Positions 30,062-51,763 of a DNA stretch of 64,000 nt are shown here, piece by piece. The notes beneath the pieces were generated by a model. The model was given only the letters and a program-made list of their open reading frames with translations. It searched no databases and was not told where the DNA came from. Positions within the stretch are counted from its first letter, which is position 1. Each line of letters begins with the position of its first letter. The stretch is from Nitrospirota bacterium (GTDB taxonomy: Bacteria > Nitrospirota > JACRHJ01): assembly GCA_021789495.1 (NCBI GenBank), contig JAJYJM010000009.1, forward strand, positions 4,004-68,003, in the 5' to 3' direction. A program made the translations under genes and the position numbers.

Positions 30062-30074
30062 ATAAACCGCATCT

Positions 30075-30110
30075 GTCACCCCCGTGAAAACGGGGGCCCA
30101 GTGACTTTTG
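30075..30110. terminator. Hairpin (CCCCCGT-gaaa-ACGGGGG) between the convergent GH57 and aspS genes
   Basis: The stem is 30079-30085 / 30090-30096, with outer GTCAC/GTGAC pairing. The TTTT at 30106-30109 is distal, so this is a weak intrinsic-terminator call. Confidence 0.35.
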
Positions 30111-30118
30111 AAAGTCGC

Positions 30119-30149
30119 TGGGTTCCCGATTAAACCATTCGGGAATGAC
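30119..30149. repeat. TGGGTTCCCG...CGGGAATGAC hairpin-repeat unit
   Basis: TGGGTTCCCGATTAAACCATTCGGGAATGAC matches the unit embedded in the tilS 3' end at about 30 of 34 positions. Confidence 0.8.
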
Positions 30150-30157
30150 GGGTTTGT

Positions 30158-31927: not shown

Positions 31928-32003
31928 ATCAGTTCTCCATAGCGTAGCTGCCGCATTTATGGGGCTTTTTTGAAATCACTCGATAAATCGATCAGCTACA
32001 AAA

Positions 32004-32771
32004 TTAAACGGCCGCCCTCTGTTTTTCCGGCTCTTTCCCCGCCGCCTTCAAGAGCGCCCTCACCTCGCCCGGCGTAAGTTCCCGGTATCCTCCCGCGGGC
32101 AATGCGCCCATACCCACGGGGCCGACTTTCGTCCTCTTGAGCTTCTGCACCGGGTGGCCGAGGGCCTCGCACATGCGCCGCACCTGGCGGTTCCTGCCCT
32201 CGTGTATCGTAATCTCAAGCCAGGAATTCGCGCGCGTGAGCTCCAGCTTCCTGACTTTCGCCGGGGCCGTCATTCCGTCTTCGAGCCTCACGCCGCCTGC
32301 CAGCCGCCTGAGCGTCGCATCGTCCATCACGCCCTTGACTTTTACCTCGTAAGTCTTCTGCACCTCTTTCGACGGGTGCATGACGGCGTTGGCAAAATCC
32401 CCGTCGTTCGTAAGGATAAGCATCCCCTCGGAATCGTAGTCCAGCCTGCCCACCGGATAGACACGCGCGCCGATGCCGGAAGACCGGCTTCGGCCAAGGA
32501 GATCCATCACGGTCTTACGCCCCTGGGGGTCTTTTGTCGTGGTGACATAGCCTTTCGGTTTGTTTAAAAGCAGGTAGATTTTTCCCCCGGATTCCCGCCC
32601 CACGACGCGGTTTCCAACCTTTATAACGTCTTCCTCCGGGTCCGCCTTTTGGCCGAGTTCGCTCACGACGCGCCCGTTGACGCGCACTTTGCCCTCAAGG
32701 ATAAGCTCTTCGGCCTCCCTGCGGGAGCAGACGCCTGCGGCGGACAGAATTTTCTGGATTCGTTCCAACAA
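32004..32771 (-). CDS. rluB: RsuA/RluB-family 23S/16S rRNA pseudouridine synthase
   Basis: 255 aa with an N-terminal S4 domain. The catalytic motif is GRLDYDSEGMLILTNDG. Confidence 0.85.
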   Translation of the reverse strand: MLERIQKILSAAGVCSRREAEELILEGKVRVNGRVVSELGQKADPEEDVIKVGNRVVGRESGGKIYLLLNKPKGYVTTTKDPQGRKTVMDLLGRSRSSGIGARVYPVGRLDYDSEGMLILTNDGDFANAVMHPSKEVQKTYEVKVKGVMDDATLRRLAGGVRLEDGMTAPAKVRKLELTRANSWLEITIHEGRNRQVRRMCEALGHPVQKLKRTKVGPVGMGALPAGGYRELTPGEVRALLKAAGKEPEKQRAAV

Positions 32772-32789
32772 ATTTCACCTATTCCTTCA

Positions 32790-32834
32790 TCCCCCTCTTA
32801 AGATAAGAGGGGGAGCGAGGGGGCGTTATGAAAA
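32790..32834. repeat. Copy 2 of the TCCCCCTCTTAAGATAAGAGGGGGA + GGGGGCGTTATG repeat
   Basis: TCCCCCTCTTAAGATAAGAGGGGGAGCGAGGGGGCGTTATGAAAA differs from 6746-6790 at about 3 positions. Confidence 0.85.
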
Positions 32835-32851
32835 GGGGCCGACGCGCGTAG

Positions 32852-34366
<1,515 letters not shown>

Positions 34367-34392
34367 TTAGCACAAATAACATGCGCATGCAA

Positions 34393-34419
34393 TAAAAAAG
34401 CCCCGGACAAGCCGGGGCT
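34393..34419 (-). terminator. Rho-independent terminator after the DUF2795 gene
   Basis: The minus strand reads AGCCCCGG-cttgt-CCGGGGCT followed by TTTTTT. Confidence 0.7.
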
Positions 34420-34435
34420 TCAAAGGAGTAAAAAT

Positions 34436-34681
34436 TTACGCCGCCATCTCTTCCCTCGCCTGCTCGTAGTTCTTCAGCACGTCCGCCATGCCGACATACT
34501 GTCTGTCCGGCATGTTCTGGAGCAGGTTTATTACCGCCTGGTCTGCGCCGTTCTGTTTTGCGTGCTTAATCAACTCGCCCCTGTTGCAGGGGAAATTGCA
34601 CCCTTTCAGATGCTGCGTGATATTGGCCGGAGACTGGCCCGTTGTCCCGCCCTGGCTGCCAAATTCACTCTGCTTCGGCAT
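34436..34681 (-). CDS. DUF2795-family small protein
   Basis: 81 aa. PANITQHLKGCNFPCNRGELIKHAKQNGADQAVINLLQNMPDRQY is the characteristic DUF2795 core. Confidence 0.75.
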   Translation of the reverse strand: MPKQSEFGSQGGTTGQSPANITQHLKGCNFPCNRGELIKHAKQNGADQAVINLLQNMPDRQYVGMADVLKNYEQAREEMAA

Positions 34682-34834
34682 GTTTTCACCTCCCTGTTAG
34701 AAAACAACCGGCGGCCCCGATGCCCTGAGAGCCACCCCGCGTAACTCAGCCCTTGAAGGGCCTACGGTTCAAAGTATAGCAACCGGGCCGCAATTCCGCA
34801 AACAGGCGTCCCGGCGCATAACGCCCGTTTTTTA

Positions 34835-34863
34835 TTGACTTCCCGCCCCGGCCAAGATATATT
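34835..34863 (+). promoter_or_regulatory. sigma70-type promoter candidate (TTGACT - 17 nt - TATATT)
   Basis: The hexamers were read directly, 40 nt upstream of the icd-like gene. Confidence 0.45.
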
Positions 34864-34903
34864 TTCAATCTTGATTAATTCATAAAATCAAAGGAGAAAA
34901 ATC

Positions 34904-35986
34904 ATGGCATATCGCGTTACCTTCATACCCGGCGACGGCACCGGGCCTGAGATTGCCGAGGCGACGAGGAGAGTCCTCGAAGCCACGGGCGTGAAATTCG
35001 ACTGGGACATCCAGGAGGCGGGGATAGACGTCTTCGAGAAGGAGGGGACGCCGCTTCCGGACAGGGTCGTGGAATCACTGATAAAGAACAAGGTCGGCAT
35101 AAAAGGGCCGGTTACGACGCCCGTCGGGACGGGTTTCCGGAGCGTCAACGTTACGCTTAGGCAGAAGCTGGATTTATACTGCTGCCTCAGGCCCTGCAGG
35201 ACGTATGAAGGCGTGCGCACGCGCTACGACAACATCGACCTGGTAATCGTCCGCGAGAACACCGAGGACCTCTACGCCGGGATAGAATACGAGAAAGGCT
35301 CAGACGGCGCAAGGGCGATAATCGACACCGTGAAGGCCCACGGCGGGCGCGAGATAAGGCCGGATTCCGGCATAAGCATAAAGCCAATATCCGTCGCGGG
35401 CACGGAGAGGATCGTCCGGTTCGCGTTCGATTACGCAAGGCAAAGCGGCAGGAAAAAGGTAACGTCGGTGCACAAGGCGAACATAATGAAGTTCTCCGAC
35501 GGCCTGTGGCTTGAGGTCTCGCGCCAGGTGGCGAAGGAGTTCCCGGAGATAGAGTTCGAGGACAGGATCGTTGACAACATGTGCATGCAGCTTGTCCAGA
35601 AGCCGGAGCTCTACGACGTCATAGTCCTGCCGAACCTCTACGGCGACATCCTCTCCGACCTCTGCGCCGGACTCATCGGCGGCCTGGGCGTAGCTCCGGG
35701 AGCCAACATCGGCACAATCGGCGCGCTCTTCGAGCCGACCCACGGCTCCGCGCCGAAATACAAGGGCTTAAACAAGGTCAACCCCGTCGCCATGATGCTC
35801 TCCGGCGTGATGATGCTGGAACACCTTGGCGAGCGCGATGCGGCGAAAAAGATGAAAACGGCCATAGCCGACGTCATCCGCGAGGGCAAGGACGTAACCT
35901 ACGACCTAAAGCCCCGCCCCGACGACCCCACCGCCGTCGGCACAAGCCAGATGGCGGACGCGATAATAAAGAAGATGAAGGGATAA
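34904..35986 (+). CDS. Isocitrate/isopropylmalate dehydrogenase-family enzyme (NAD-IDH / homoisocitrate dehydrogenase-like)
   Basis: 360 aa. It has [11 protein letters not shown] and [10 protein letters not shown] plus the family-typical length. Substrate cannot be fixed by eye. Confidence 0.85.
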
Positions 35987-37986: not shown

Positions 37987-39210
37987 CTATGCGGCTGAAA
38001 ACTGCGTCCCACTTTCCAGCGCGGGAAGGCGGATGATGAAAGTTGCGCCCTTGCCCGGCTCGCTTTCGACGCTTATTATGCCGCCGTGGTCGTTAATCAC
38101 CCTGTCCACGACGGAAAGCCCAAGCCCCGTGCCCTCCCAGTCGGACTTGGTCGTATAAAACGGGATGAAAATCTTGTTTAAGGCCTCTTTTTCGATTCCT
38201 ATGCCGGAGTCCTTCAGGCTTATCTCGATGTATTCTCTCTGCGCGGGCGGCGTGTCCCGGAGAAGCTCCGCCTTCGTATTCCCCTTCATTTTCCTTACCC
38301 GGATGGCAATATCGCCGCCCTGGGGCATGGCATGGACGGCGTTAACGAGCAGGTGGGAAAATACCTCCTCCATCTCCTCCGCCGAGGCCAGCACTTCGGG
38401 TATCTCCGGCTCCATGTCCAGTATTACCTTTATGCCGTTCTTCATGAACTGGGTGGACAGTGTCCGGAGCGACGCCCTTATCGTGGAGGGCAGGTCTATG
38501 GGCCTTTTTTCGCGTTTTATTCTGCGGGAGAAGAGATTCAGGTTCGTGACAATCGCGTTTATCCTGTCCACGTCCGACATTATCTTCGTTAAGTATTCGC
38601 GCTTCGGGTCGTCGCCCTCCAGCTCTTCCATCATAATCTGCGAATAAAGCGCAATGGAATTTAGGGGATTGCGTATCTCATGGGCCATGCCGCCGGACAT
38701 CTCGCCCAGGGAGGCCAGGTTCGTCTGGTGGATAAGCCTGTCCTGCGTCTCGACCAGGTCTCTTGTCCTCTCCTCGACCTTGCGCTCAAGGCCACGGTTG
38801 AGCTCCTGTACCTCTTCCTGCAGACACCTCGCCTTTATCTCGGCGCCCCTTATCCGCAGGGTATCCTTCACAACCTTTATTATCTGCTCTCTGACGAACG
38901 GCTTTATGACGTAATCGCTCGCCCCGGCCTTCATAACCGACGCTGCCACTTCCTCGCTGCCTCGCCCGGTTACCATAACCACATAAATCTCGTCGGAATA
39001 TTCCTTTATTCTCTTTAAGACTTCAAGGCCGGTCATGTCCGGCATCATGTAGTCGAGAAGGACAAGCTGTGGGTTTCCATCCCTGGCCGACTGCATGGCT
39101 TCGGCGCCGTTAAAGGCGGAAATCACTTCATACCCGGCAAGTTCGAGGATCTTTGAGAGGACTTTTACAATATCCTGCTCGTCGTCCACGACGAGTATTT
39201 TATCAGGCAT
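37987..39210 (-). CDS. Hybrid REC-histidine kinase (N-terminal receiver, HisKA, HATPase; no obvious sensor domain)
   Basis: 407 aa. The REC domain is ILVVDDE...LLDYMMPDMTG...KP, the H-box is MAHEIRNPLN, and the G2 box is GTGLGLSVV. Confidence 0.9.
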   Translation of the reverse strand: MPDKILVVDDEQDIVKVLSKILELAGYEVISAFNGAEAMQSARDGNPQLVLLDYMMPDMTGLEVLKRIKEYSDEIYVVMVTGRGSEEVAASVMKAGASDYVIKPFVREQIIKVVKDTLRIRGAEIKARCLQEEVQELNRGLERKVEERTRDLVETQDRLIHQTNLASLGEMSGGMAHEIRNPLNSIALYSQIMMEELEGDDPKREYLTKIMSDVDRINAIVTNLNLFSRRIKREKRPIDLPSTIRASLRTLSTQFMKNGIKVILDMEPEIPEVLASAEEMEEVFSHLLVNAVHAMPQGGDIAIRVRKMKGNTKAELLRDTPPAQREYIEISLKDSGIGIEKEALNKIFIPFYTTKSDWEGTGLGLSVVDRVINDHGGIISVESEPGKGATFIIRLPALESGTQFSAA

Positions 39211-39382: not shown

Positions 39383-42300
39383 TTACAGCTGCTCCGGCAG
39401 ACCCTTGAGGCTTTTCTCGTCCATCTTGACCCTGAGCTTCACGTAAGGGCCACGGCCCTGGAAATCCTCCTGGGTCAGGTCCGAATCGAACTTGTCGAAG
39501 GAGTAGCCCGCCGAAAGCCATATGTCCTTTATCACCCTGTAACCGGCCTCCGCCGCGCCTCCGAAGAGGCGGCTTTGGCAGTGGTGGCCGGTTAACATCC
39601 GGGCGGTGCCGCCTATGTCTATGCGGTTGGTCAAGTCATAGAAGGCCTTTACTGAGACAAGGTCCGTAAATACGGGAATGCCGCCGGTTACCGCATACTT
39701 GCAGGCGTATTTCCCGCTAATCTCCATCCTGGCGGAAGGCGTCAGGACGCCGTCAGCCGAGAAGATGTACGAGTTGCCGTCCAACCCTTGCGCTGCCGGG
39801 TTCTTCTCGTATTTGTATTCGAACTTAGCCAACGCGTTGAATACGTCCGTCCAGGCCGGGCGGTATGCTATTCCGGTTGCGGCCCTGGAGAGTATCCGCG
39901 AGCCGGAGCCGGACTGGTCGTCGAAATAGCGCCCGCTTGTAAGCAGGAAGAAGTCGCTGTCGAGCTTGTATGCGCATCCGAGTTCCGCAAGGTATGACGT
40001 GTCTCCGGTGGCGTGCCTGTACTCGAAGCGGGAGGTTGCCTTGATGTCCTTTCCTTCGAGATATGCAAGGCCAAAAGACGATGCGAATGCGTCCGGCTCC
40101 GCAAGCTTCTCCTGGCCGGAGAGGGTTTTCAAGTCCTCAACGGAGACATCGCCCGTAACGCCGCAGCCTATATTGAACTTGTTCCTTATGCCTATGCTCT
40201 GCTCGTTCCTGGATCCGTCCGCTCCGCCGACAAGCCTGTATTCGTCGAAGGCCACGGTATTCTTCGCAATAGTGGATTCCGCGCCCGCCACGGTCCTCGC
40301 CTGGGAGCGGTCGTCGAGCTGCATATACTGCTCGCGGACGTAAAGGCGGGTGGACTGGGTATACTGGTATTCGACCCCGGCCTCGGTCATGTTGTCCCGG
40401 TTGCGCAGTATGTCCTGCGTGCGGTCCGCGCTCACGGTAACGTCCTTCCAGGGCGTTGCCGAGAGGAATAACTTCAGCGCGGTAAGCCTGCTTGGAATCT
40501 CCTCGCTGTTGTCGAACGGGAACCTCGTCGTCGGGAGATTGGCCGGCACGAACGTCTCCGTGGACTGCTGGTACTGGAAGTCAAGGCCGGCCTTGAATAT
40601 CTTCAGGAAGGCCGTCTTAAGCCCGGCGGAGGCGAAGTCGTCGTGCATGTGGTTTACGCGGTCTTTCTCCACGAAGAACTTCCCGCAGGCGTCGGTATCC
40701 TTTGCCACCTTGTAATCGACATCCGCACCGTAGCTCTCCTTCCCGGCCTGGTAGTTCGTCGCGGAGGGGTTCTGGAAGAAGTCGCCGACGTTATAGTAAT
40801 AGGCGCTCGCCTTGAGATTGGTTATGGGGTTCGCGCAGAGCTTCAGAGACCATGCGGAGCCCACCTTCGGCGTAAAGATGCTGTCTATGTTGAAGAGCGA
40901 ATCCGTCTGGGCCCACTCGCCCTTGACGACGGTCTTGAGCGGCAGGCGGGCCGTAACGTCCGAGCCGAGGAGCCTGTTGTCCGACACGTCGTTCTGCTCC
41001 ACGATGCCGGTGAAGCCCGTCTCAAGCCACGAAAACGGGTCTATCGCCGCCCGGCCTCCGTATACGTAGTGTTTCTGCGTGCCGAGGTTCTCGTAGCTCA
41101 CGATTATATATACGGGATTGAAGTTGTCGTCCCGGACGGGAATCGGGGACTTGAAGAGTATCGAACCCATCTCGTAGTCTATGGTGTAGTCCGTCCATCT
41201 CGTCATCGGCGCCCTGCTTATGACGCGCTCAGGCTGACGCCAGTCGCGCGTCTCGATAACGACCATCTCGCTCCCGACGACAATCGGCGCCTTCGAGAGG
41301 AAGTAGTAGCCCGCGATGCCCTTTCCGGGTATGGCGTCCACTACCTGGGCGTTCTCGGTACGGCTGACGAAAGAGCGCATCTTGAAACGCTTCGTGTCCA
41401 CGTCCGCAACAAGACCTGTGAACGTCCTGTTGTATGCCGCAAGGCCGCCCTGGTTAAGATTGGTCTGGAAATCCCCGTAGGTTACGGACGAGCGGTCCTT
41501 CTCCGCGCGCAGGTACAACTTGTCGCTGGAGAGCGCTTCGTAGCCAATCCTGCTGTCGTCGCCAAGTATCGGATACTGGCTCTCGGACTCTACGTTGCTT
41601 ATGGCGGACTTAAACAGCCCCACGTCCTGCTTCTGCTTCGCGGAATCGTAGGAGGCCGTAAGGAGCGTGCCCCAGCCTATGTCGCCCTTGGCGAAGAACG
41701 CCCCCCGGCCTCCGAAGAAGAAGTTGTTGTCGAGCCAGTTGTCGCTCGCAAACGTCCTGCCCTGTGCGTTCCTTGTCGAGCCGTATCCTATGGCGACCTC
41801 GCCATCGCCCACAGCGATCATCTTGCGAAGATAGGGCGAGAAGAACACTGGGACGGTCTCCGTTACGCCGTTGCACGACACGGTTATTTTATCTCTGCCC
41901 GTGCGCCACGGGGACTTCAGGTGGAATTTCACGTTCCCGTCCGCAGGCTCGAACTGCGTCCCCGGCTCGGTTTTGTCCATGTCCTTGTCGAGTATTTTCC
42001 CTCTGGAGGTTTCCACGGTTACCGTGCCGGGATAGCCCACAACCGCGCCCTTTTCGTCGAGTATCTTTACGCTGAATTCCGTAACGGTCTTGCCGTCGGC
42101 GGGGATTTCCGCCTTTGCCGGGGTTACGATTATCTTCGCCGGCCTTCCGGAGGCGCGAAGGGTTATCGTCGCCGCGGCAATCTTTCCGGAGGCGTCCTTC
42201 GCCTCGGCCTTTATTTTATTATCCTCGCCCGGAACAACTTCCACGCTTATGAATTCGTATACGGCGACGCCGCTCACCGGGTCTTTCGTCGTCCTGCCGA

Positions 42301-44206
42301 GATGCCCGTTTACCTCTTCCCCGTTCACATACAGCGACAGCGCGTCGTTTATCGGCGCCTTCACGACGACCTTGACCTTCCTGATATAAGCCGTCGCGCC
42401 GTCCCTTGGAGAGAGGATTTCGAGCGCGGGCGACATATGCTTTATCCGCTCCTTGACGGGCTGTTCAGCCGAGGGCTGTGCGACTGTTTCCTTCGCGCCG
42501 TTTTGCGCCTGCTGCGGGTTGGCGCCCGTTTTAATCGGGCCGATGTCGCCCGTTACGGCAAAATCCGCCTTGAAAAGCCCGCCCGAAGGCATGTCCACGA
42601 ACTGCGACGCCTCGTCTCCCATGAACCTGTCGGACAGCGCCTCAAGCTTCGCGCCCTTCGGGAGCGATGTCTCGTCCACGCGCAGGACGTGCGTCCCGGC
42701 GGTTACGCCGAATATCGAGAACTTCCCGTCCGTGCCGGTAATAACCCGCGTGCCGTCCTCCATATATATAACAACTCCGGGTATGCCCGGCTCGCCTTCG
42801 TCCTGTATCCTGTTCCTGTTTTTGTCCTGGAATATCTTTCCGATGATTACTCCCTTGGACGTAAACACGCCTCCGTTAATAATCAGGCTGAACCGGGCCT
42901 TGTTGGACATGAGGACGCCGCCCGTCGTTGAGCCTGTCGCAAAGGCCGTGTTTACGGCAGTAGTCCCTTCCCGGCTGTCCGGGCCGACGGACGCGCTGTA
43001 GGAAAGAACTGCCGTCCCCCCTGCGGGAAGCGCGCCCGCGCCAAAGACAAGCTCCGCTCCCGAAATCGCCGGGTCGGGCGCCTTCCTGCCGTTTATCGCC
43101 GCGGAGCCTTTCAGGTAGTGCAGCCCTTGCGGCATGACGTCTGTAATTGTAAGTACCGAAACGTCCGTCTTCCCGGTATCCTGAACTGTAACTGCATACC
43201 GGACTATGTCGCCGATCGACGCGGAGTTCCTGTCCGCGGTCTTGGCGACCTGGAGATAGCTCACGGGCGGGTCTGCGGGCATGTCGATGTCGAGCGGCTG
43301 CGTCCCTGTATTAATCGTAAAACTGCCGCCGTAGGAGCCCGGAGTAACGATATTGTAGCCCGCCGGGAAATCCGCCGCCGGGACGGTTGACGGGAATATA
43401 TAGCCGCCGCCGGGAGATACCGTAATGTGATAATTGCCGGGGTTCACGTATTTGAAGCTGAACTGGCCGTCCGCGCCCGTAACGACCGGGTTTTGCTGGG
43501 CTATCGGGACTGCCGGAGGTTGGGGAAGAACGGCGGGCCTGCCGGTTGCGTTGTCAACGAGGGTAACCGTGGCCCCGCTTATCATCTGGCCGCTTGACGA
43601 ATCGAAGACCCTGCCGTACGGGTCCACGAGCGCGGTATCGTCCACGGTGGATATTTGGCTCGCCTGGTCGGTATATACCACCTTCAGCGTCGAGTCGTCG
43701 CCCAGCGATAGGACGCCGTCGCCCGGAACGGGCGGGCCGCCGTTGGATGTTATGCTGCCCCTGTATATCCCGGTTCCCTGGCCGGTCTCGGCGAGGGCGA
43801 CGGTGACGGTATCGAACACGCTCTTTGAACCCGGCCCGATGTAACTGGAAATCGTTGCGGACACCTTTCCGGGAGTGGAAGGGTCGGGGTCGAAGTTCTT
43901 GTCCGTAACCTGCACGTATACCGTATCTCCGACATTATACTGGTAGGCCTTGTTCCAGGACGAATCGCAGAACTGCACCTCTATGGGAAGCGGTGTGCCG
44001 ACGACCGTATCTGCGGAGGCTGAAATCTGCGGTATCGGGTTCCCGACGCCGTTATTGTAATTCGCGTAAGCGGTGTTCGTGATATGGGTGCCGGGCGCGG
44101 GGTCGGCGGCCCATGCCTGCGGGAGGGCAAAAAGCGCTCCCAGGAGGCACAGGATTACCGCCGCCCCTGCCCGGAATTTCATACGTATGTCATGCAGCGC
44201 GCCCAT
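39383..44206 (-). CDS. Giant (1607 aa) secreted multidomain protein. The order is signal peptide, Cna-B/SdrD-like, DUF11-like and Ig-like (Big_1-like) modules, then a ~750-aa C-terminal outer-membrane beta-barrel-like region.
   Basis: The signal peptide is AVILCLLGALFALPQAWA. Cna-B-like segments are ATVTLVDNATG...TGADGQFSF...PGNYHITV and GVVIYMEDGTRVITGTDGKFSIFGV. The DUF11-like segment is GDIVRYAVTVQDTG...TDVMPQGLHYLKGSA. The Ig-like segment is IIVTPAKAEIPADGKTVTEFSVKILDEKG. The C-terminal third has many alternating-hydrophobic strands such as ATSRFEYRH, FNALAKFEYKYE and IWLSAGYSFDKF. Confidence 0.75.
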   Translation of the reverse strand: MGALHDIRMKFRAGAAVILCLLGALFALPQAWAADPAPGTHITNTAYANYNNGVGNPIPQISASADTVVGTPLPIEVQFCDSSWNKAYQYNVGDTVYVQVTDKNFDPDPSTPGKVSATISSYIGPGSKSVFDTVTVALAETGQGTGIYRGSITSNGGPPVPGDGVLSLGDDSTLKVVYTDQASQISTVDDTALVDPYGRVFDSSSGQMISGATVTLVDNATGRPAVLPQPPAVPIAQQNPVVTGADGQFSFKYVNPGNYHITVSPGGGYIFPSTVPAADFPAGYNIVTPGSYGGSFTINTGTQPLDIDMPADPPVSYLQVAKTADRNSASIGDIVRYAVTVQDTGKTDVSVLTITDVMPQGLHYLKGSAAINGRKAPDPAISGAELVFGAGALPAGGTAVLSYSASVGPDSREGTTAVNTAFATGSTTGGVLMSNKARFSLIINGGVFTSKGVIIGKIFQDKNRNRIQDEGEPGIPGVVIYMEDGTRVITGTDGKFSIFGVTAGTHVLRVDETSLPKGAKLEALSDRFMGDEASQFVDMPSGGLFKADFAVTGDIGPIKTGANPQQAQNGAKETVAQPSAEQPVKERIKHMSPALEILSPRDGATAYIRKVKVVVKAPINDALSLYVNGEEVNGHLGRTTKDPVSGVAVYEFISVEVVPGEDNKIKAEAKDASGKIAAATITLRASGRPAKIIVTPAKAEIPADGKTVTEFSVKILDEKGAVVGYPGTVTVETSRGKILDKDMDKTEPGTQFEPADGNVKFHLKSPWRTGRDKITVSCNGVTETVPVFFSPYLRKMIAVGDGEVAIGYGSTRNAQGRTFASDNWLDNNFFFGGRGAFFAKGDIGWGTLLTASYDSAKQKQDVGLFKSAISNVESESQYPILGDDSRIGYEALSSDKLYLRAEKDRSSVTYGDFQTNLNQGGLAAYNRTFTGLVADVDTKRFKMRSFVSRTENAQVVDAIPGKGIAGYYFLSKAPIVVGSEMVVIETRDWRQPERVISRAPMTRWTDYTIDYEMGSILFKSPIPVRDDNFNPVYIIVSYENLGTQKHYVYGGRAAIDPFSWLETGFTGIVEQNDVSDNRLLGSDVTARLPLKTVVKGEWAQTDSLFNIDSIFTPKVGSAWSLKLCANPITNLKASAYYYNVGDFFQNPSATNYQAGKESYGADVDYKVAKDTDACGKFFVEKDRVNHMHDDFASAGLKTAFLKIFKAGLDFQYQQSTETFVPANLPTTRFPFDNSEEIPSRLTALKLFLSATPWKDVTVSADRTQDILRNRDNMTEAGVEYQYTQSTRLYVREQYMQLDDRSQARTVAGAESTIAKNTVAFDEYRLVGGADGSRNEQSIGIRNKFNIGCGVTGDVSVEDLKTLSGQEKLAEPDAFASSFGLAYLEGKDIKATSRFEYRHATGDTSYLAELGCAYKLDSDFFLLTSGRYFDDQSGSGSRILSRAATGIAYRPAWTDVFNALAKFEYKYEKNPAAQGLDGNSYIFSADGVLTPSARMEISGKYACKYAVTGGIPVFTDLVSVKAFYDLTNRIDIGGTARMLTGHHCQSRLFGGAAEAGYRVIKDIWLSAGYSFDKFDSDLTQEDFQGRGPYVKLRVKMDEKSLKGLPEQL

Positions 44207-44228
44207 ACCGGTCTGCGTCCGGACGCGC

Positions 44229-45530
44229 CTACTTTATCTGCGCCTGGAACTGGAGTATCCACGTCCCGCCGGGCGCGATGGTAACGGGATTGGTGGATAC
44301 CGTGGTCGTGCCGCCGTTGTAGGATGCGTTGCCTGCGGACAGGCTGCCGCTCGAAGCCCCGGCCTCTGCCGAGCCGCTCACATAGGTCGTGTTGGCCGGA
44401 AGCGGGTCGGATATGACGACGCTGCTTGCGGGACCCGCGGTCGCGCTGTTCGTCGCGGTGATGGTGTAAGTCAGTGTGGCTCCGGGCGCGGCGCTCGCCT
44501 TGTTCACTGCCTTGATAAGCGAGAGCGCGGGCGCAACCAGCGCGGGCGTTACGTTCACGGACGGGTTGACTGTTCCGCTCGTGTCGAAGGTGATGTTCGC
44601 CGTGTTCGTGATGGGGCTGCCCTGGGTGTTCGCATTGGCGGTAACCTGGAATGTCAGGGTATCGGTCGCGCTTGCGTTCACTGTGCCGACGTCTATGGTA
44701 ACCTTCCCGCTGCTGTAGGCCGTCGTGCTGCCGCCGCCGTACGCGGTTTCGGATGTAGCGTCAGGCACGCCGGTTCCGTTCAACTGGATGGTGCCGGCAA
44801 CATACGTAAGGCCCGCCGGTATCGAGTCGGTGATTATGACGCTCGATGCCGCCACGTTGCCGGTATTGGGCACGGTGATGGTGTAGGTGAACGGAACACC
44901 TATTGTCGGGCTCGCCGTGGAGGATGTCTTCGAGGACGTCGAGAGATTGTCGGTATTGGCCGTCGTCGTGGCAATATCCGTGTCGGACTTGGTGCCGTCG
45001 CCGACGGAGGTCGCCGTCGCGGTAGTAACTGCCGTCGATCCCGCGGTGGTGCCGGACGGAATCGTTACGACCATGTATGCGACAGTCGAGGCGTTCTGGC
45101 CAATCGGCCCAACTGTCAGGGTGTTGGTCGCGCCGCTTCCGTTGGACTGCGTGCTGAACTGCACGGACGAAGGCGCCCAGCCGCTCGTGTTGGCCGAGGA
45201 AAGCGTAAAGCTGTCGTTGCCGTTGCCGTTGTTGTATACCGTAACGGTGTAGATGACGCTTGTGCCGTCCGCGCCGCTCTTGGCGTCCGTCCCCGGCGTA
45301 ACCACGACTCCGTAGATCTGCGTTACGGTCGTTGTGACGGTGTTCGAGTTTACAGCCGTCTGGGCCGCGCCGTTCGCATTATTGTAATTTACAGTCGCCT
45401 GGTTGCTGATGGTCGTCCCGGAGGGCGTGAAGGTGTTGTTCGTGAAGGACGACTGCCCCGCCATCGCAGCCGAGGCCGCGAGCAGCGTGATCGATACGGT
45501 TAATAATACCTGCATGAGTAAACGTTTCAT
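44229..45530 (-). CDS. Secreted multi-DUF11-repeat protein (Thr/Ser/Asn/Gly-rich, Cys-free)
   Basis: The start is chosen at MKRLLMQ, which has AAAGGAG 8 nt upstream. The signal peptide is LLAASAAMAG. DUF11-type repeats include FTYTITVPNTGNVAASSVIITDSIPAGLTYVAGT and LTYTITATNSATAGPASSVVISDPLPANTTYVSGSA. Confidence 0.8.
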   Translation of the reverse strand: MKRLLMQVLLTVSITLLAASAAMAGQSSFTNNTFTPSGTTISNQATVNYNNANGAAQTAVNSNTVTTTVTQIYGVVVTPGTDAKSGADGTSVIYTVTVYNNGNGNDSFTLSSANTSGWAPSSVQFSTQSNGSGATNTLTVGPIGQNASTVAYMVVTIPSGTTAGSTAVTTATATSVGDGTKSDTDIATTTANTDNLSTSSKTSSTASPTIGVPFTYTITVPNTGNVAASSVIITDSIPAGLTYVAGTIQLNGTGVPDATSETAYGGGSTTAYSSGKVTIDVGTVNASATDTLTFQVTANANTQGSPITNTANITFDTSGTVNPSVNVTPALVAPALSLIKAVNKASAAPGATLTYTITATNSATAGPASSVVISDPLPANTTYVSGSAEAGASSGSLSAGNASYNGGTTTVSTNPVTIAPGGTWILQFQAQIK

Positions 45531-45628
45531 CTTAATGCTCCTTTCATGGTTCATAAAACTACATTGTCAATACAAACGGCTCTGAAAAATTTTGCCTGCA
45601 TTTCACCTCCGTTTCTTTATCGGTTTTA

Positions 45629-46120
45629 TTATTTAACCCTCGCCTTAAAACTTACGCTGCCGGATGCCTTCGGCAAGATTTTCTTTATCGTCCACTTTAT
45701 GTTCGTATACGTCTGCGGGGGCGCGGCCTTCTTCACGCCGCCTGAGACTCTTTTCGGAGTCCTGCTGAAAGTCTTGCCATTGTCTATGCTGAACGAAACT
45801 GCCGCGCCGGCGCCTTTCGCGCTTCCGCCAACATAGGCCATTCCATACGGCACCGGGTCCGCTATCACCGCATCGGTCGCCTCGGAATCCCCGGAGTTGG
45901 TGTAGGCAATCGTGTATAAAATCACGTCGCCCTTCGTTGTCATTTTCGCCGGCGCCAGTTCGATTGTCTCCTTGCCGTTTTTGACTATCCTCACCTCCTG
46001 TTCGGCCTTCATCTTCAGTGTCAGTTTCGGGGCCTGCGCCATTGCCGAGGCCGCAAACGCCGCTACCGCAAAGGCCGAGACCGCCATGATAAAAAACCTT
46101 TTTACAAACTTCCCGTTCAT
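45629..46120 (-). CDS. Small secreted single-DUF11-domain protein (163 aa, Lys-rich)
   Basis: The signal peptide is AVAAFAASAMAQA. The DUF11 core is VILYTIAYTNSGDSEATDAVIADPVPYGMAYVGGSA. AGGAGG lies 7 nt before the ATG. Confidence 0.8.
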   Translation of the reverse strand: MNGKFVKRFFIMAVSAFAVAAFAASAMAQAPKLTLKMKAEQEVRIVKNGKETIELAPAKMTTKGDVILYTIAYTNSGDSEATDAVIADPVPYGMAYVGGSAKGAGAAVSFSIDNGKTFSRTPKRVSGGVKKAAPPQTYTNIKWTIKKILPKASGSVSFKARVK

Positions 46121-46147: not shown

Positions 46148-47983
46148 TCAATTCACCGTGGTCTTGTAGCCCAAAGTCCCGCCCGCACCGACCGCCAGGG
46201 GCGAGAGAGTCCATTTGACGCCCGTTACGGGCGCCGCGTCAGAGCTGTTCCATGTAACGCCTCCATCATGACTGAACAAAATCGTCGTGCCCGCGCCCTG
46301 CGCGCTGCCCGTTACGTAAGTCGTGTTTGCCGGGACGTTGTCGAGGAAGATAAGCGCATAGGCTGGCGCGTCCCCGATGTTCTTGTATGTTATCGTGTAG
46401 GTAATCGCGGCTCCGGGCGGCGCGGACGATTTGTCCACGCTCTTGCTCATGCTGATTATCGGGCTTAAGACAAGGAGCGATGCAGTGTTCCCCGTAGAAA
46501 CCGGCCCGAAGTTCGTCCCGGATGCGGCGGCGGTGTTCGTGAAAGTCCCGCCCGTGTTCGGAGTTACGGCCTGGAAGCCAATGGTCTCAGTCCCGCCGAC
46601 GGAGAGTGTCCACGAACCCGACCATGTAAGCGTCTGTCCGGATATTGCCGGGTCGGACGTCGTAAGTCCGGTGGTCGAGCCGGGCTTATACGTGAACCCC
46701 GCCGGGAGCGTGTCCGTGAGGGTTGTCATAGCGCCGGGCAGAGTCCCGGCGGGAGTCGCGGGATTCGTCAGTGTTATGGTATATGTAACGGCGGTGGAAT
46801 CCAGCGCCTGGGTCGGGGAGACTGTTTTCGCAATGCCCACGTTCGGCGAGCTGACCGTAAAGCTGTCGTAGTAGTTGGATACCCCCGTAACGGGGTTTAC
46901 GACGTTTATCCTGTAGACGCCCGGCGTCCAGGAGATCGGTATCGAAAGGAGCGAGGCGCCAAGCGCCTCTCCGTTTCCGTTTGTGGTAATCGTCCCGCTC
47001 CAGAGTTTCGTGGCGCCCGACGGGTCGTACACCTGAACGGCAAGTGCCGTGTTCCAGGGGAAGCCGTAGGCGTTCACGGTCAGGGTCTGGCCGCCGAACC
47101 ATGTGCCCGCGCTGCTGGGCGGGTTGGTGTCCCTCGTGTCGTACAGGAACCCATCCACGCCGGGGTTCCCGAAGGTGAAGAGCGCTGTCTCCGTGAAGTC
47201 CAGGGAAGACCTGCCGGAAGCGGGGTCTATGAAGTAGTCCTTGTTTATCGTGTTCGCTTCCGTCGAGGTGCCGTAGAAAGCCCGGACGGGGGTATTGAGC
47301 GTGATGGGCGCGTTTGCGCCGAGATATGGAGAGCCGGCCTCGAACCACGAAAACGGCACCGTAATGTCCACGGTGAAGATATCCGCGCTGGTCGTCTGGT
47401 TTACCACGCCCGTATCCGTTACCGTCATGTAGCCCGTGCTGTCCGTCCAGGTCGTCCCCGCCCCGCCCGTGCCGTTTTCCGTGATGGCGCCAAGGACGAC
47501 GTTCAGGGGATTGTCCGCCGAGGCGGATGTCCCGTTGAAGAGCATCAGTTCACCGGGAGTGCCGGTCTTGCTTATCTGTACGCACCAGTTCTGCACGGAG
47601 GCGGAGGTCGGGGCCAGCGCGTCGGAGGTGTCGAGGAACACGGCAATGCCTGTGTTGTTGTTCACCTCCCACACGCCCTGGCTGTTCAGGCTTAAGGGGT
47701 TGTTGTTCAGGAGGATACGGAAATAGACGTTACCGGTCGTAGTGCCGTCACTCCCGACGGAGGCCGAGGCCCATGTCCCGTAACCGCCCGTGGGGCCGTC
47801 GGAGGATATGTCCTGGTAATCCTTGAGGCTATTCTCGCCGTTGTCGTCATAGATCGGGTTCCAGTTGTCGCCGCGGTTTATCGTCGCCCAGTTCGCGAAT
47901 ACGGCAAGGGCCGTCCGCGGCGGCAGGACGGAGAAAACGACCAGCAGGCATAAACCAAAGATAACCAGACCTCTCGGTTTCAT
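46148..47983 (-). CDS. Secreted 611-aa protein: unrecognised N-terminal ~380-aa domain plus two C-terminal DUF11-type repeats
   Basis: The signal peptide is LLVVFSVLPPRTALA. The DUF11 repeats are VTYTITLTNPATPAGTLPGAMTTLTDTLPAGFTYKPGS and ITYTITYKNIGDAPAYALIFLDNVPANTTYVTGSA. An AAGGAG RBS is present. Confidence 0.8.
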   Translation of the reverse strand: MKPRGLVIFGLCLLVVFSVLPPRTALAVFANWATINRGDNWNPIYDDNGENSLKDYQDISSDGPTGGYGTWASASVGSDGTTTGNVYFRILLNNNPLSLNSQGVWEVNNNTGIAVFLDTSDALAPTSASVQNWCVQISKTGTPGELMLFNGTSASADNPLNVVLGAITENGTGGAGTTWTDSTGYMTVTDTGVVNQTTSADIFTVDITVPFSWFEAGSPYLGANAPITLNTPVRAFYGTSTEANTINKDYFIDPASGRSSLDFTETALFTFGNPGVDGFLYDTRDTNPPSSAGTWFGGQTLTVNAYGFPWNTALAVQVYDPSGATKLWSGTITTNGNGEALGASLLSIPISWTPGVYRINVVNPVTGVSNYYDSFTVSSPNVGIAKTVSPTQALDSTAVTYTITLTNPATPAGTLPGAMTTLTDTLPAGFTYKPGSTTGLTTSDPAISGQTLTWSGSWTLSVGGTETIGFQAVTPNTGGTFTNTAAASGTNFGPVSTGNTASLLVLSPIISMSKSVDKSSAPPGAAITYTITYKNIGDAPAYALIFLDNVPANTTYVTGSAQGAGTTILFSHDGGVTWNSSDAAPVTGVKWTLSPLAVGAGGTLGYKTTVN

Positions 47984-48275: not shown

Positions 48276-48291
48276 TGCAAATGTCGTGCCA
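48276..48291 (-). promoter_or_regulatory. sigma54 (RpoN) promoter: TGGCAC-GACAT-TTGCA on the minus strand
   Basis: The plus strand reads TGCAA-ATGTC-GTGCCA at 48276-48291. This is an exact match to the -24 TGGCAC / -12 TTGC consensus with the canonical spacing. It lies about 55 nt upstream of the ATG at 48220. Confidence 0.85.
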
Positions 48292-48527: not shown

Positions 48528-49907
48528 TTATTCTTTTTCCATAGTGGAGAGCTTTTTCCTGTTGAACATCTTCCGGTTGATTTTCAGGCGCTGGGCGGCA
48601 AGGGTCTTGTTGCCTCCGCAACACTTTAAGGTCTCCTCCAGGATAGTGTTAACCACGGCGTCGAGCGAGAAACTCTCATCGTCGAGTTTAAGCTGTATGC
48701 CCATGCCGCCTATGGAGACCGTATCGGGATTCCTGTTAATCACCAGGTGTTCCGGACGGATAAGCTCGTCGTTCACGAGAATGGCGGCCCGCTCCAGGCA
48801 GTTCCGGAGCTCGCGCACGTTCCCCGGCCAGTCGTATGCCATCAGCACTTCTATCGCCTTGTGGGATATTCCGGGAAGCGGTTTGCCGAGATGATGCCGG
48901 AAAACGGGAAGGAAGAAATCTACAAACAGCATGATGTCTTCCTTGCGCTCCCGAAGCGGCGGGATGACAATCGGGAAGACGTTCAGGCGGTGGAACAGGT
49001 CTTCCCTGAATTTTTCCTGCCGGACGAGTTCCCTTAAGTCCCGGTGCGTAGCAGCAATAACACGGAAATCTATCGGAAGCTCCCGGTCGGAGCCTATCTT
49101 GTAATAAGTCCTCTCCTCAAGCACCCTCAGGAGCTTGGCCTGCAAGGGAAGCGGCATGTCGCCGATTTCGTCGAACAGAAGTGTGCCGCCGTGCGCCAGC
49201 GCGAACTTCCCTACCCTGTCCCTGTCGGCCCCGGTGAACGCGCCCTTGACATGACCGAAGAGCTCGCTCTCAAGCAGCGTATCCGGGACGGACGCGCAGT
49301 TGACGCCGACGAAATTGGACGGCAGGCCCCCGCTGACGAAATGAACGGCTCTTGAGAGAACCTCCTTGCCCACGCCGCTTTCCCCTAGTATCAGGACTGT
49401 CGTCTGGTGCAGCGATGCAACCCTCTCGGCCAGCACCAGCGCATGGCGCATCCGGGGAGACTGGGTTGTGATTGACTGGAAGCTGTATTTCGAGGCGAGG
49501 TGTTTTCTGAACCCGGAGTTCTCTCTTGCCAGGCAGCCGTAATCGAGCGCCCGTTTTATTACCATCGCCAGCTCGTCCGGCGGAGAGTTCTTCTCGAGAT
49601 AATCGAACGCGCCGCTCTTCATGGCCGTCACAGCCGTCCCGACGCCGCCCTGGGCGGTAAGGATAATAAACGGCGTATCGTCGCCCCTGCCCCTGAGGAC
49701 GCGCAAGAACCCGATTCCGTCCAGCCCCGGCATTACCAGGTCGGAAACGATAAGCTCGTAATCCTCGTCTTCAAGGACCTTGATTGCTTCTTCGGCGGAT
49801 TTCGCAACGGAAACCTCATACCCCATACCGCCCAGCATATCCTTCAACAGATGGGCGCAACTGTCGCTATCCTCTACAATCAGAATGCGTTCGCTGGACA
49901 TAATCAA
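48528..49907 (-). CDS. NtrC-family sigma54-dependent response regulator (REC - AAA+ - Fis-type HTH)
   Basis: 459 aa. The REC domain is ILIVEDSD...[10 protein letters not shown]. Walker A is GESGVGKE, the GAFTGA loop is present, and ESELFGH follows. The C-terminal HTH is [16 protein letters not shown]. Confidence 0.93.
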
Positions 49908-50230: not shown

Positions 50231-51763
50231 TTATATCAGCTTTCTGTCGAGGCTTCTGTATTGTATCGCCTCGGAAACATCCTGGGCCTGAATGCTCTCG
50301 CGGTTTGCCAGGTCGGCTATCGTGCGGGCTACCTTGATAATTCGGTTGTATGCGCGGGCGGAGAGGCCGAGCCGCTCCACGGCGTGCTCGAGGAGGGAAT
50401 GGGTTTTGTCGTCCACGGCGCAGAAGCGCTTCAGGTGCCTGGGCTTCATCTGGGAATTGCAGTAAATGCCGTCCCCGCCAAGCCTTTCAAGCTGTATATT
50501 CCGCGCCCTGTTCACCCTTTCGCGCACTTTTTCTGAGCTTTCCCCCGGACGGTCGTCGGAAAGCTCACGATACTTCACGGACGGGACTTCCACGTGCAGG
50601 TCTATCCTGTCCAAAAGCGGCCCGGATACGCGCGCGCGGTAGCGCTGTATCTGGTTCGGTGTGCACGTGCACTGGTGAGAGCTGTCCGTATGAAACCCGC
50701 AGGGGCAGGGGTTCATGGCCGCGACGAGCATAAAGGACGCGGGGAAGGTTATGGAGGCCGTGGCGCGGGAGATGGTCACCTGCCTGTCCTCCAGCGGCTG
50801 GCGCAGGACTTCAAGGGCGTTCCTGTGGAATTCCGGCAGCTCGTCGAGGAACAATACCCCGTTATGCGAAAGGCTGACCTCGCCCGGCTTCGGGTATGCG
50901 CCTCCGCCGATAAGCCCCGCGTCGGAAATGGTATGGTGCGGGCTTCTGAAAGGCCGGGTGGCCACGAGCGGCATGTCCGGCGGGATAAGACCTGCGACGC
51001 TGTGGACTTTGGTCGTCTCGATGGCCTCGTCGAAGCCCATGTCCGGGAGCACGGTCACAAGCCTCCTGGCGAGCATGGTTTTGCCGGAGCCGGGCGGGCC
51101 TATCATCAGGACGTTATGTCCACCGGCAGCGGCAATCTCAAGCGCCCTTTTTACGTGCTCCTGGCCCTTGACCTCGGAGAAGTCCTCCAGATACCTGGAG
51201 TTTTCCTGGAACAGGCGCGATATATCCATCCGGAATTTCTGAAGAATCCCCTCGCCCCGAAAGAACTCCACCACGGAGGCGAGGTCGTTTGCCCCGTAAA
51301 CGTCCACGCCGCCTACAACAGCCGCCTCTTTCGCGTTCGCGTGAGGCAGTATGAGGCCCTTTAACCCCGCTGCGGACGCCTTCACGGCCATCGAAAGCGC
51401 GCCCCGGACGGGTTTTATGCGCCCGTCGAGAGAGAGCTCCCCGACAATCATATACCCGGACAAGGCTTCCTGCTGAAGGATACCTTCCGAGGCGATAATG
51501 CCGAGGGCTATCGGGAGGTCGAAGGCGGAGCCCTCCTTCTTTACGTTGGCCGGGGCCAGGTTTATGACAATCTGCTTGAGCGGGAAGTCGAAGCCGTTGT
51601 TCTTGAGCGCGGAACGGACCCTGTCCTTGCTCTCTTTTATAGCCGCGTCCGGAAGCCCCACCGTGGCGAAATAAGGAAGACCCCTCGCCGTTACATCTAC
51701 CTCCACGTCAACCACGTATGCGTCTATCCCCAGCACGGCGCTTGAGGTTATTTTTGAAAGCAA
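50231..51763 (-). CDS. comM: YifB/ComM-family Mg-chelatase-like AAA+ ATPase
   Basis: 510 aa with an N-terminal Lon-protease-like domain. Walker A is GPPGSGKT, and [10 protein letters not shown] and the C-terminal ChlI-like region are present. Confidence 0.9.

Follow-up and report, generated by a model that had tools for sequence, protein, structure and literature searches.

In bacteria of the Gram-negative type, surface fibres are built by the chaperone-usher, type IV, type V, curli and other routes. In chaperone-usher pili, subunits with an immunoglobulin (Ig) fold are exported by Sec, the last domain of each stops short of its C-terminal strand, and the strand that is missing comes from an extension at the N-terminus of the subunit that follows; the tip subunit carries no donor, the shaft subunit carries both donor and acceptor, and the terminator carries a donor only (FimH-FimA(n)-FimI/PapH, with the usher FimD/PapC). 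Here we report that a 64,000-nucleotide stretch of a Nitrospirota genome (GCA_021789495.1, contig JAJYJM010000009.1, positions 4,004 to 68,003; hereafter the window) encodes an operon in which the donor-strand arrangement of this pathway is found at the level of sequence, in subunits of a different fold, the CLIPPER domain (formerly DUF11; PMC12617251). The operon, on the minus strand, consists of three short genes, here called A, B and C, and of a gene for a 1607-aa protein whose N-terminal half (module D) is an array of Ig-like domains and whose C-terminal part (module E) is predicted to form a giant outer-membrane (OM) beta-barrel. By analogy, we rate the system as a non-homologous counterpart of the donor-strand pili that ushers assemble, with an isopeptide lock as a possible addition.

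The likeness to chaperone-usher pili extends to the assembly platform: both kinds of operon encode an OM barrel, here a predicted one, with Ig-like domains that are here presumed to be periplasmic, neither includes an ATPase, and the beta-sandwich predicted here after about six strands may correspond in position to the plug of the usher. No part of the two systems is homologous, however. The usher model PF00577 gives no match at an E-value of 1 or below in 32 members of the barrel family; the barrel has about 36-38 predicted strands where the usher has 24, and its inserted domain is unlike the usher plug. No PapD-like chaperone is among the genes conserved in 85 related loci, and B is a truncated CLIPPER domain instead of the two-domain PapD fold. 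The subunits here are CLIPPER domains of CnaA type, the terminator is fused to or coupled with the barrel, and a covalent lock is possible.

A second group of described systems, fibres joined by donor-strand exchange and lock (BsaA of Clostridium perfringens, in the TasA family, and the threads of Sulfolobus), also places an N-terminal strand into the beta-sheet of the neighbouring subunit. In BsaA and the archaeal threads a donor Asn, an acceptor Lys and an acidic catalytic residue of the acceptor form an intermolecular isopeptide bond, and the same residues are conserved here; the fold is TasA/camelysin-like, however, rather than CLIPPER/CnaA, the hosts are monoderm bacteria or archaea with no OM component, and the bond is in our case suggested by the conserved residues. 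Sortase pili (RrgA/RrgB/RrgC, SpaA) share CnaA/CnaB-type domains, Lys-Asn chemistry and a division into tip, shaft and base, and protein C matches an RrgB isopeptide-domain model. They differ in that the system of the window belongs to a diderm host, has no sortase, LPXTG motif or cell-wall sorting signal, and would link its subunits by completing a domain in trans, not by transpeptidation. Its split-domain logic is that of the engineered SpyTag/SnoopTag Tag/Catcher pairs.

CLIPPER arrays are reported to form the stalks of surface fibrillar adhesins, and in the solved CLIPPER domain 9IFR a Lys of the first strand is joined to an Asn of the last strand by an Asp-catalysed isopeptide bond (K715, D748 and N806; PMC12617251). 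In the literature that we searched we found no account of an A-B-C-D-E operon, of CLIPPER acceptors that are truncated or of DUF11 proteins with a barrel as partner, and papers on tafi and F-ENA proved tangential to the system.

Putative split CLIPPER domains in a conserved operon

Genes A (46148..47983), B (45629..46120) and C (44229..45554) lie directly upstream of the 1607-aa gene on the same (minus) strand and encode proteins of 611, 163 and 441 aa, with gaps of 27, 74 and 22 nt between the successive genes of the operon. All three products have a signal peptide and DUF11/CLIPPER domains (PF01345; 68.8, 32.7 and 72.4 bits, respectively). Protein A has a variable N-terminal region followed by one complete CLIPPER domain (residues 378-508) and a truncated terminal one (507-610), and B has a single truncated acceptor (61-162) and no donor strand. 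Protein C opens with a donor segment (residues 33-77, nt 45324-45458; GTTISNQATVNY...SNTVTTTV), continues with internal CLIPPER domains and closes with a terminal acceptor (residues 341-440, nt 44235-44534); it matches the NCBIfam isopeptide-domain model RrgB_K2N_iso_D2, and no PDB chain by sequence. None of the three proteins bears an LPXTG-type sorting signal or a hydrophobic tail, each ending flush with its truncated domain, and no sortase gene was found in the neighbourhood or in the 85 related loci. Searches of Pfam and NCBIfam for TasA/BsaA or thread-subunit homology gave CLIPPER-type matches only.

The truncation becomes apparent when the domains are aligned to a 131-position CLIPPER hidden Markov model (HMM), which we built from proteins of the A-B-C-D-E loci. 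In the window, the CLIPPER domain that closes each of A, B and C stops at model position 97, one residue short of the stop codon (the terminal domain of A maps to positions 2-97 and that of B to 16-97). Across the loci, terminal CLIPPER domains end at positions 94-98, no more than 5 aa from the C-terminus, in 17 of 26 A, 53 of 58 B and 48 of 63 C proteins; internal CLIPPER domains reach positions 110-131 in 96% of 501 cases. The part absent from the truncated acceptors corresponds to the last two strands of the domain, '…GTITNTAT…SASATVTV'.

A matching strand segment (GTxIxNxA) is present at the mature N-terminus of C, AGTPAGTxIxNxAxxxYxDANGN…SNxVTTxV, and at that of D or fused D-E proteins (ADPAPGTHITNTAYANYNN… in the window). 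In 41 of 42 C proteins and 47 of 55 D or D-E proteins the corresponding donor motif, h-x-N-x-[ASG], occurs no more than 60 aa from the signal peptide, and it is rare elsewhere (1/39 B, 3/13 A and 3/25 E-only proteins). When donors were compared with the CLIPPER profile by hhalign they fell on positions 100-116, directly past the truncation point (P 0.0012 and 0.03). A tail-only CLIPPER HMM matches residues 36-68 of the 1607-aa protein and is too weak to score donors alone. In a chimera test, appending a donor to the C acceptor raised the CLIPPER score by 11.2 bits for C donors and 12.2 bits for D donors, and completed the alignment in 100% and 93% of cases, respectively; the controls gained 3.1 bits (B N-terminus), 2.0 bits (E N-terminus) and 0.2 bits (shuffled donors), and reversed donors lost 0.5 bits. 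The orphan CLIPPER strand of D has no acceptor inside D-E. Taken together, these patterns imply that the subunits would join head to tail, by donor-strand complementation from one to the next.

The mature N-terminus of A in the window (VFANWATINRG) also resembles the N-x-A donor motif, a feature shared only with its closest relative, whereas the N-termini of other A proteins read AWPT..QWIP.... As the FANWATIN string is not conserved beyond that relative, we rejected A as a donor-bearing subunit; the resemblance may have arisen by chance, or it may mark an additional donor specific to the lineage.

The same division extends to the residues of the isopeptide bond. Positions K9, D/E47 and N106 of the model correspond to K715, D748 and N806 of 9IFR; all three are present in 357 of 466 internal domains and all three are absent in 37, and thus they co-vary as a putative functional triad. 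Truncated acceptors keep the Lys in 83% of A and 80% of C proteins and the Asp/Glu in 89% and 100%, and B has 0% Lys at the in-register position. In terminal domains the triad is therefore divided between acceptor (K and D) and donor (N). With the Lys and the acid on one partner and the Asn on the other, an intermolecular isopeptide would be possible at A-C, C-C and C-D joints and not at joints made by B, and we infer that such a Lys-Asn bond may lock the subunits together where they meet.

Related loci were collected using a 4-sequence alignment of the inserted region of the barrel (see below) as query, and 85 of them were analysed. The order A-B-C-D-E is kept in nearly all, across about 10 phyla: the loci span Nitrospirota, Syntrophales/Smithella, Lentisphaerota, Marinimicrobia, Latescibacterota, Gemmatimonadota, Bacteroidota/Ignavibacteriota/Chlorobi, Alphaproteobacteria and cyanobacteria. 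In the recurring arrangement an A of variable size is followed by a B of 150-190 aa and a C of about 560-630 aa, and these by D, a long array of Ig domains, and by E, the barrel protein. No further neighbouring gene is conserved across the 85 loci, and these contain no conserved chaperone, sortase, ATPase or inner-membrane component; the unit is thus A-B-C-D-E. An earlier inspection of the window, made from the letters alone (the sequence-only reading), had suggested that the 1607-aa protein works with the three DUF11 proteins upstream, and both the gene order and the matching half-domains bear this out.

That inspection had also placed a 1607-aa open reading frame (ORF) with a Sec signal at 39383-44206, and the translation of the window confirms it, on the minus strand. 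The signal peptide occupies residues 1-33 (44108..44206; MGALHDIRMKFRAGAAVILCLLGALFALPQAWA|ADP), with cleavage after AWA (…ALPQAWA|ADP), a layout also seen in orthologues. It is followed by the donor segment of module D (residues 34-68, 44003..44107; ADPAPGTHITNTAYANYNN...), which corresponds to orphan last CLIPPER strands and bears the Asn, and by the Ig array of D (residues 69-555, 42542..44002), whose domain order is repeated in relatives. Pfam recovers the Cna-B/SdrD-like, DUF11-like and invasin-type segments that had been noticed by eye: within the array these are a CarboxypepD_reg/SpaA-like domain (198-267; 53.8 bits for CarboxypepD_reg), a complete CLIPPER domain (318-440; PF01345 at 318-438, 49.3 bits against a cut-off of 24.6) and SdrD_B (458-512, 42.7 bits), and beyond it lies an Invasin_D3/Big_1 match (690-784) that at 28.4 bits is below the 33-bit cut-off. 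The Ig part, linker included, ends near residue 828 rather than 850.

Modules D and E meet in a low-complexity, Gln/Ala/Pro-rich linker (residues 556-592, 42431..42541; GDIGPIKTGANPQQAQNGAKETVAQPSAEQPVKERIKHMSPA). This is the point at which 41 related loci show a stop codon, followed by a new start and a second signal peptide. Among the 70 loci that could be scored, D and E are fused in 29, including that of the window, and split in 41, mostly with gaps of -25 to +6 nt (the two exceptions are 172 and 347 nt); the split D and E are translationally coupled genes. The 1607-aa gene has the appearance of two genes, ancestrally or alternatively separate, that were fused. Module E begins with two Ig-like domains (residues 593-828, 41723..42430), including the Invasin_D3/Big_1-like one. 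These are conserved at the N-terminus of E-only proteins, which open with a signal peptide of their own and an 'LxIxSP...' Ig domain; OmpA domains flank this Ig-like region in relatives, several separate D proteins terminate in an OmpA domain, and the two Ig-like domains are presumed to be periplasmic.

The predicted C-terminal barrel and its inserted domain

The sequence-only reading described the C-terminal region as an unusually large barrel-like array of strands, and all of the strands that it quoted, together with the C-terminus ...GPYVKLRVKMDEKSLKGLPEQL, are found in the translation. Residues ~800-1607 have no Pfam match, even at an E-value of 1 or below, the last ~800 residues have none in NCBIfam, and the barrel region matches no PDB chain by sequence. 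In the protein and 31 relatives, models of the usher (PF00577), autotransporter (PF03797), intimin/invasin and DUF3570 barrels gave no match at E<=1. Generic OM-barrel models of Pfam matched weakly and in scattered relatives (DUF2490 in 6/32; also OmpA_membrane, OMP_b-brl, Porin_4 and Toluene_X).

AlphaFold2, given residues 800-1607 (808 aa) and the 31 homologues as a 32-sequence alignment, returned a near-continuous meander of hairpins over the C-terminal ~770 aa (predicted local distance difference test, pLDDT, 79.5; predicted TM-score, pTM, 0.70), in which the sole helix ahead of the barrel strands has 5 residues. We counted 6 strand elements ahead of the inserted domain and 31 behind it, 37 in all, which would put the true number of barrel strands at 36 or 38. 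Foldseek found 146 matches to the model in the PDB at E<=1e-3, and the best 50 of these, which were inspected, are all OM barrels, mostly large ones, with no solenoid and no usher structure among them. The top match is Deinococcus SlpA (30 strands, E 4e-9), followed by LptD (26 strands), by TonB-dependent transporters and by MtrB. Given the low TM-scores (0.15-0.28), the barrel matches no known family. The model thus supports a giant OM beta-barrel of about 36-38 strands, as had been supposed from the strand pattern. The size was underestimated in that first description: the barrel does exceed the 12 strands of type Va, and by strand count it exceeds those of the usher, LptD and TonB-dependent receptors, to which it had been likened, as well.

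In the model the first ~6 strands lie within residues 829-954 (41345..41722; E30-43, E49-55, E98-104, E107-115, E129-138 and E142-155 in the numbering of the 808-aa query), with a low-confidence loop at ~860-888. The remaining ~31 strands occupy residues 1041-1595 (39422..41086) and end in the beta-signal-like YVKLRVKM, followed by a C-terminal tail and the stop codon (39383..39421; DEKSLKGLPEQL). Among 171 relatives the last strand has the consensus GPYlKLRFKF, of beta-signal type, which precedes 'DE' and a short basic tail. Tails of this kind are common in the family, some members being tail-less and stopping exactly at F or Y and others bearing a C-terminal OmpA domain in place of the tail. 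The window protein has M where the family has the terminal F; the lack of a terminal aromatic residue ahead of a 10-aa tail, to which attention had been drawn, is a local substitution and not a feature of the family.

By size the barrel falls in the class of the largest single-chain OM barrels, SprA/Sov of type IX secretion (36 strands), SlpA (30) and LptD (26), from which it differs in having no sequence similarity to them and TM-scores within the range given above. A 2021 survey predicts from sequence a superfamily of 38- and 40-strand barrels and gives neither function nor partners for it (PMC8346858). The family described here, whose count of ~37 strand elements fits the 38-strand class, may belong to that superfamily (families 002 or 003), with which it agrees in size class.

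The position of OmpA domains in relatives suggests how the protein is oriented. An OmpA domain is located before the barrel in some relatives and after it in others, which places both ends of the barrel in the periplasm, as in ordinary OM proteins. Where it separates the Ig array from the barrel, or closes a separate D protein at its C-terminus, it places at least the barrel-proximal part of the array in the periplasm as well. The barrel family was seen in diderm phyla only (80 listed genome loci).

Between the two parts of the barrel lies an inserted domain (residues 955-1040, 41087..41344) that contains the segment earlier proposed as a plug. This is the most conserved stretch of the family (GxGISGYYxL…SExVxIETRDR…DYxIDYxxGxILFKxPVPS…NPVxIxVxYE). 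Modelled alone with 51 homologous segments, it is predicted by AlphaFold2 to be a 7-strand beta-sandwich (pLDDT 96.6, pTM 0.84), and among PDB folds it comes closest to accessory sandwiches from the tail tubes and the tail fibres of phages (YSD1, phage Chi, T7 gp17 N-terminus; TMq 0.57-0.65, E 0.04-0.1). The expectation of a discrete domain is therefore upheld, in that an independently folding and highly conserved beta-sandwich follows the first ~6 strands; a likeness to the plugs of ushers or TonB-dependent transporters is not, as none appeared in the top 50 fold matches. We did not confirm the insert as an usher-like plug, its fold neighbours being the phage sandwiches, with weak E-values. 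By analogy with ushers, the insertion point after ~6 strands would be on the periplasmic side. In the large model the first and last strands of the insert continue the flanking barrel strands, so that the insert, instead of filling the lumen, may project from the rim.

Proposed fibre assembly and competing explanations

Based on the domain anatomy, the statistics of truncation and donor motifs, the synteny and the predicted barrel fold, we propose that A-B-C-D-E is a five-module system in which a donor-strand fibre, A-C(n)-D, is anchored by the OM barrel E and possibly locked by isopeptide bonds. We regard this reading as moderately probable; complementation in trans, the lock, the order of the subunits, a pore function of E and the location of the fibre at the surface are what we infer in it. 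Residues 34-555 of the 1607-aa protein would be module D, an Ig stalk that starts with the orphan CLIPPER strand, and residues 593-1607 would be module E. Proteins A, B and C would be exported by Sec and the subunits would link head to tail via donor-strand complementation. Having both donor and acceptor, C can polymerise; A and B, with acceptors only, can cap only the end that exposes a donor, and D, with a donor only, can cap only the acceptor end and would so terminate and anchor the fibre. The resulting layout would be A (or B)-C(n)-D, with A as the proposed distal tip, C as the proposed polymerising subunit repeated along the shaft, and D as a base held by E.

Each joint could be locked by a spontaneous intermolecular Lys-Asn isopeptide, in the manner of a natural Tag/Catcher pair, and B, being without the acceptor Lys, would probably hold donor strands non-covalently, perhaps reversibly in the periplasm. 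We suggest that E is inserted by BAM, the machinery for assembly of beta-barrels, via its C-terminal beta-signal, and that it would act as a platform or conduit at which the fibre and the D stalk cross and are tethered. The tether would be covalent in fused forms, including that of the window, and would take the form of a peptidoglycan-binding OmpA domain in some split forms. More tentatively, and as a claim we would place somewhat short of probable, the locus may represent a new diderm fibre pathway, widespread across phyla and without chaperone, sortase or ATPase, in which CLIPPER domains are completed in trans and locked by isopeptides and the product is exported through a ~38-strand barrel that is covalently continuous with the fibre.

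Several points weigh against this proposal. Donor and acceptor of C may complement each other intramolecularly, within one chain. The hhalign P-values (0.0012 and 0.03) are modest, because the segments are short, and the donors of the chimera test were picked by a regular expression that requires an N-x-A core, which makes the gain somewhat too large, although donors that were shuffled, and so had an identical composition, gained nothing. Closure of the barrel and its exact strand number rest on fold matches to a predicted model; a mean-field direct coupling analysis (223 sequences, reduced alphabet) missed most adjacent-strand pairs, its positive control, and gap artefacts dominated its output. 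Among the conserved genes of the 85 loci none encodes a periplasmic chaperone, which leaves a block on premature polymerisation in the periplasm without explanation. The role of B, whether non-covalent cap, tip or chaperone-like holder of donor strands, is a guess, and a structure that stays in the periplasm would fit the peptidoglycan-binding domains found in D or E of relatives equally well.

This last point leads to the main alternative, in which the CLIPPER proteins polymerise beneath the OM as a periplasmic or envelope-tethering scaffold, the barrel is a mere anchor and nothing is exported; such a scaffold would connect the OM with peptidoglycan or make up a layer beneath the membrane, with Deinococcus SlpA or the OmcB layer of Chlamydia as parallels. 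It would account for the OmpA domains in D or E of several relatives, and the best structural match of the barrel is indeed SlpA, an OM-to-cell-wall tether. One relative weakly matches the Chlamydia OmcB repeat, and the operon encodes no energy source or known translocon component. We nevertheless consider a scaffold unlikely. OmpA anchors with 8 strands, and a barrel of 36-38 is far bigger than an anchor requires; module A has a large variable N-terminal region of a kind typical of tip adhesins, and OmpA domains are absent from the window protein and from most relatives. In addition, CLIPPER arrays have been described as the stalks of fibrillar adhesins at the cell surface (PMC12617251).

A self-contained adhesin of autotransporter type, which threads its Ig array through its own barrel while the upstream DUF11 proteins act independently, was the interpretation towards which the sequence-only reading leaned, and we hold it to be distinctly improbable. 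The order of signal peptide, Ig array and C-terminal barrel would suit it, and in the fused form, as in type Va, the periplasmic N-terminus of the barrel is the place from which the array has to emerge. Type V proteins (autotransporters, intimin/invasin) do combine an Ig array and a barrel in one polypeptide, with an Invasin_D3/Big_1-like domain beside the barrel. The barrel described here, however, resembles none of theirs: it is non-homologous, gives no match to autotransporter, intimin/invasin or usher barrels at E<=1, and exceeds the size expected of type Va about 3 times. Type Va proteins have a beta-helical passenger and a pore-filling alpha-helical linker where we find an Ig array and only a 5-residue helix, and in the intimin/invasin proteins of type Ve a 12-strand barrel is N-terminal and the Big_1 repeats follow, the reverse of the order seen here. 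Array and barrel are separate genes in most lineages (41 of the 70 scorable loci), the three genes upstream are conserved together across phyla and keep a fixed order, and the CLIPPER strand with which D starts finds no acceptor inside D-E. Nor does the idea of a passenger agree with the OmpA domains of relatives, which put at least the barrel-proximal part of the Ig array in the periplasm.

Like LptD or TonB-dependent transporters, the barrel might instead act as a gated channel through which a small molecule, a lipid or a polysaccharide passes, with the insert as its plug and the Ig domains as periplasmic accessories. Structural and profile matches do include LptD, TonB-dependent transporters and FadL-type proteins, and a conserved inserted domain exists. 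There is, however, no TonB box or plug homology, the insert resembling phage tail sandwiches, no transport or biosynthesis genes are conserved nearby in the 85 loci, and the strict co-occurrence with donor and acceptor CLIPPER proteins would be left unexplained; we think a transporter very improbable. That the C-terminal region is no membrane barrel at all, but a soluble beta-solenoid or sandwich array, is barely credible: closure does rest on fold matches and the covariation run missed most adjacent-strand pairs, but the pTM of 0.70 is that of one compact fold, the best 50 of the 146 structural matches are all closed OM barrels with no solenoid, a terminal beta-signal motif and weak OM-barrel Pfam matches in relatives are present, and the 80 listed loci of the family come from diderm lineages only.

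If the donor-strand fibre pathway proposed above is correct, it would add a new class to the short list of routes by which diderm bacteria make surface fibres, and one that calls for no more than Sec, BAM and five self-organising proteins, in many environmental phyla that have been little studied. Some 3000 clusters of large 'hypothetical' OM proteins would gain a function from it, as would the many short DUF11 proteins with an abrupt end, and it would be the first case of donor-strand, possibly covalent, polymerisation of CLIPPER domains. A barrel of ~38 strands would be among the largest single-chain barrels known, and the locus offers a testable case for the purpose of a barrel of 36-38 strands. 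The naturally split Lys-Asn domains may also serve as orthogonal tags for protein ligation.

Regulation, chromosomal surroundings and distribution

A sigma-54 type promoter element, TGGCAC-N5-TTGC (TGGCACGACATTTGC), lies at 48277..48291 on the minus strand, in the 544-bp gap upstream of A. It is an exact match to the consensus and the sole match in the window at one mismatch or fewer, on the strand of the operon; about 2.9 chance matches are expected at that threshold, and it is therefore the position and strand of the element that carry the argument. A gene for an NtrC-type sigma-54 activator (response regulator, AAA and HTH_8 domains) lies just upstream of the element, at 48528-49907 on the minus strand. 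Just downstream of the operon, at 37987-39210 on the same strand, is a gene for a hybrid kinase with receiver, HisKA and HATPase domains, and two-component genes adjoin the operon in 11 of the 85 related loci, mostly downstream. On this sequence evidence, expression of the operon is probably sigma-54 dependent.

Just beyond the activator gene is a gene for a Mg-chelatase/ComM-YifB-like AAA protein (50231-51763, minus strand), and on the other side of the operon housekeeping genes encode GuaB, AspS, an RluB-like protein, a LeuB-like protein and a GH57 branching enzyme (28463-35986). With these neighbours, the operon sits in an ordinary chromosomal context and on no obvious mobile element. Two long antisense ORFs on the plus strand overlap the barrel gene (40643-42931, 762 aa) and gene C (44073-45503, 476 aa). 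Their translations are rich in Arg, Gly, Ala and Val and have no domain features, and their appearance is that of shadow ORFs in GC-rich coding DNA, not of genes.

The barrel family is large, with 2977 clusters at 50% identity found by HMMER at E<=1e-3 and 1177 at E<=1e-30. Most of its members have 1600-2500 aa with the barrel at the extreme C-terminus, and all of them are named 'hypothetical' in their sources. The closest genomes are metagenome-assembled genomes (MAGs) of Nitrospirota, with 90% and 81% identity over the insert region; the DNA of the window was also detected in mine-drainage metagenomes.

Some individual loci deserve mention. In a MAG labelled Chitinophaga pinensis (L073) the locus is 4.3 kb long and E is cut by the contig end, which makes it too short for a comparison of gene sizes. 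A locus labelled Synechococcus sp. UW140 (L069) encodes a D of 2471 aa and an E of 1016 aa, sizes that match those in MAG loci of Bacteroidota (L046-L049), and its contig may therefore be mis-binned and not from a cyanobacterium; the loci that are genuinely cyanobacterial (L082, L084 and L085) have a layout unlike that of L069. Finally, in a MAG of candidate division WOR-1 (L003) an SLH-domain protein is encoded at 5222-6469, just upstream of the operon equivalent, which hints at a link to cell-wall or S-layer anchoring in that lineage.

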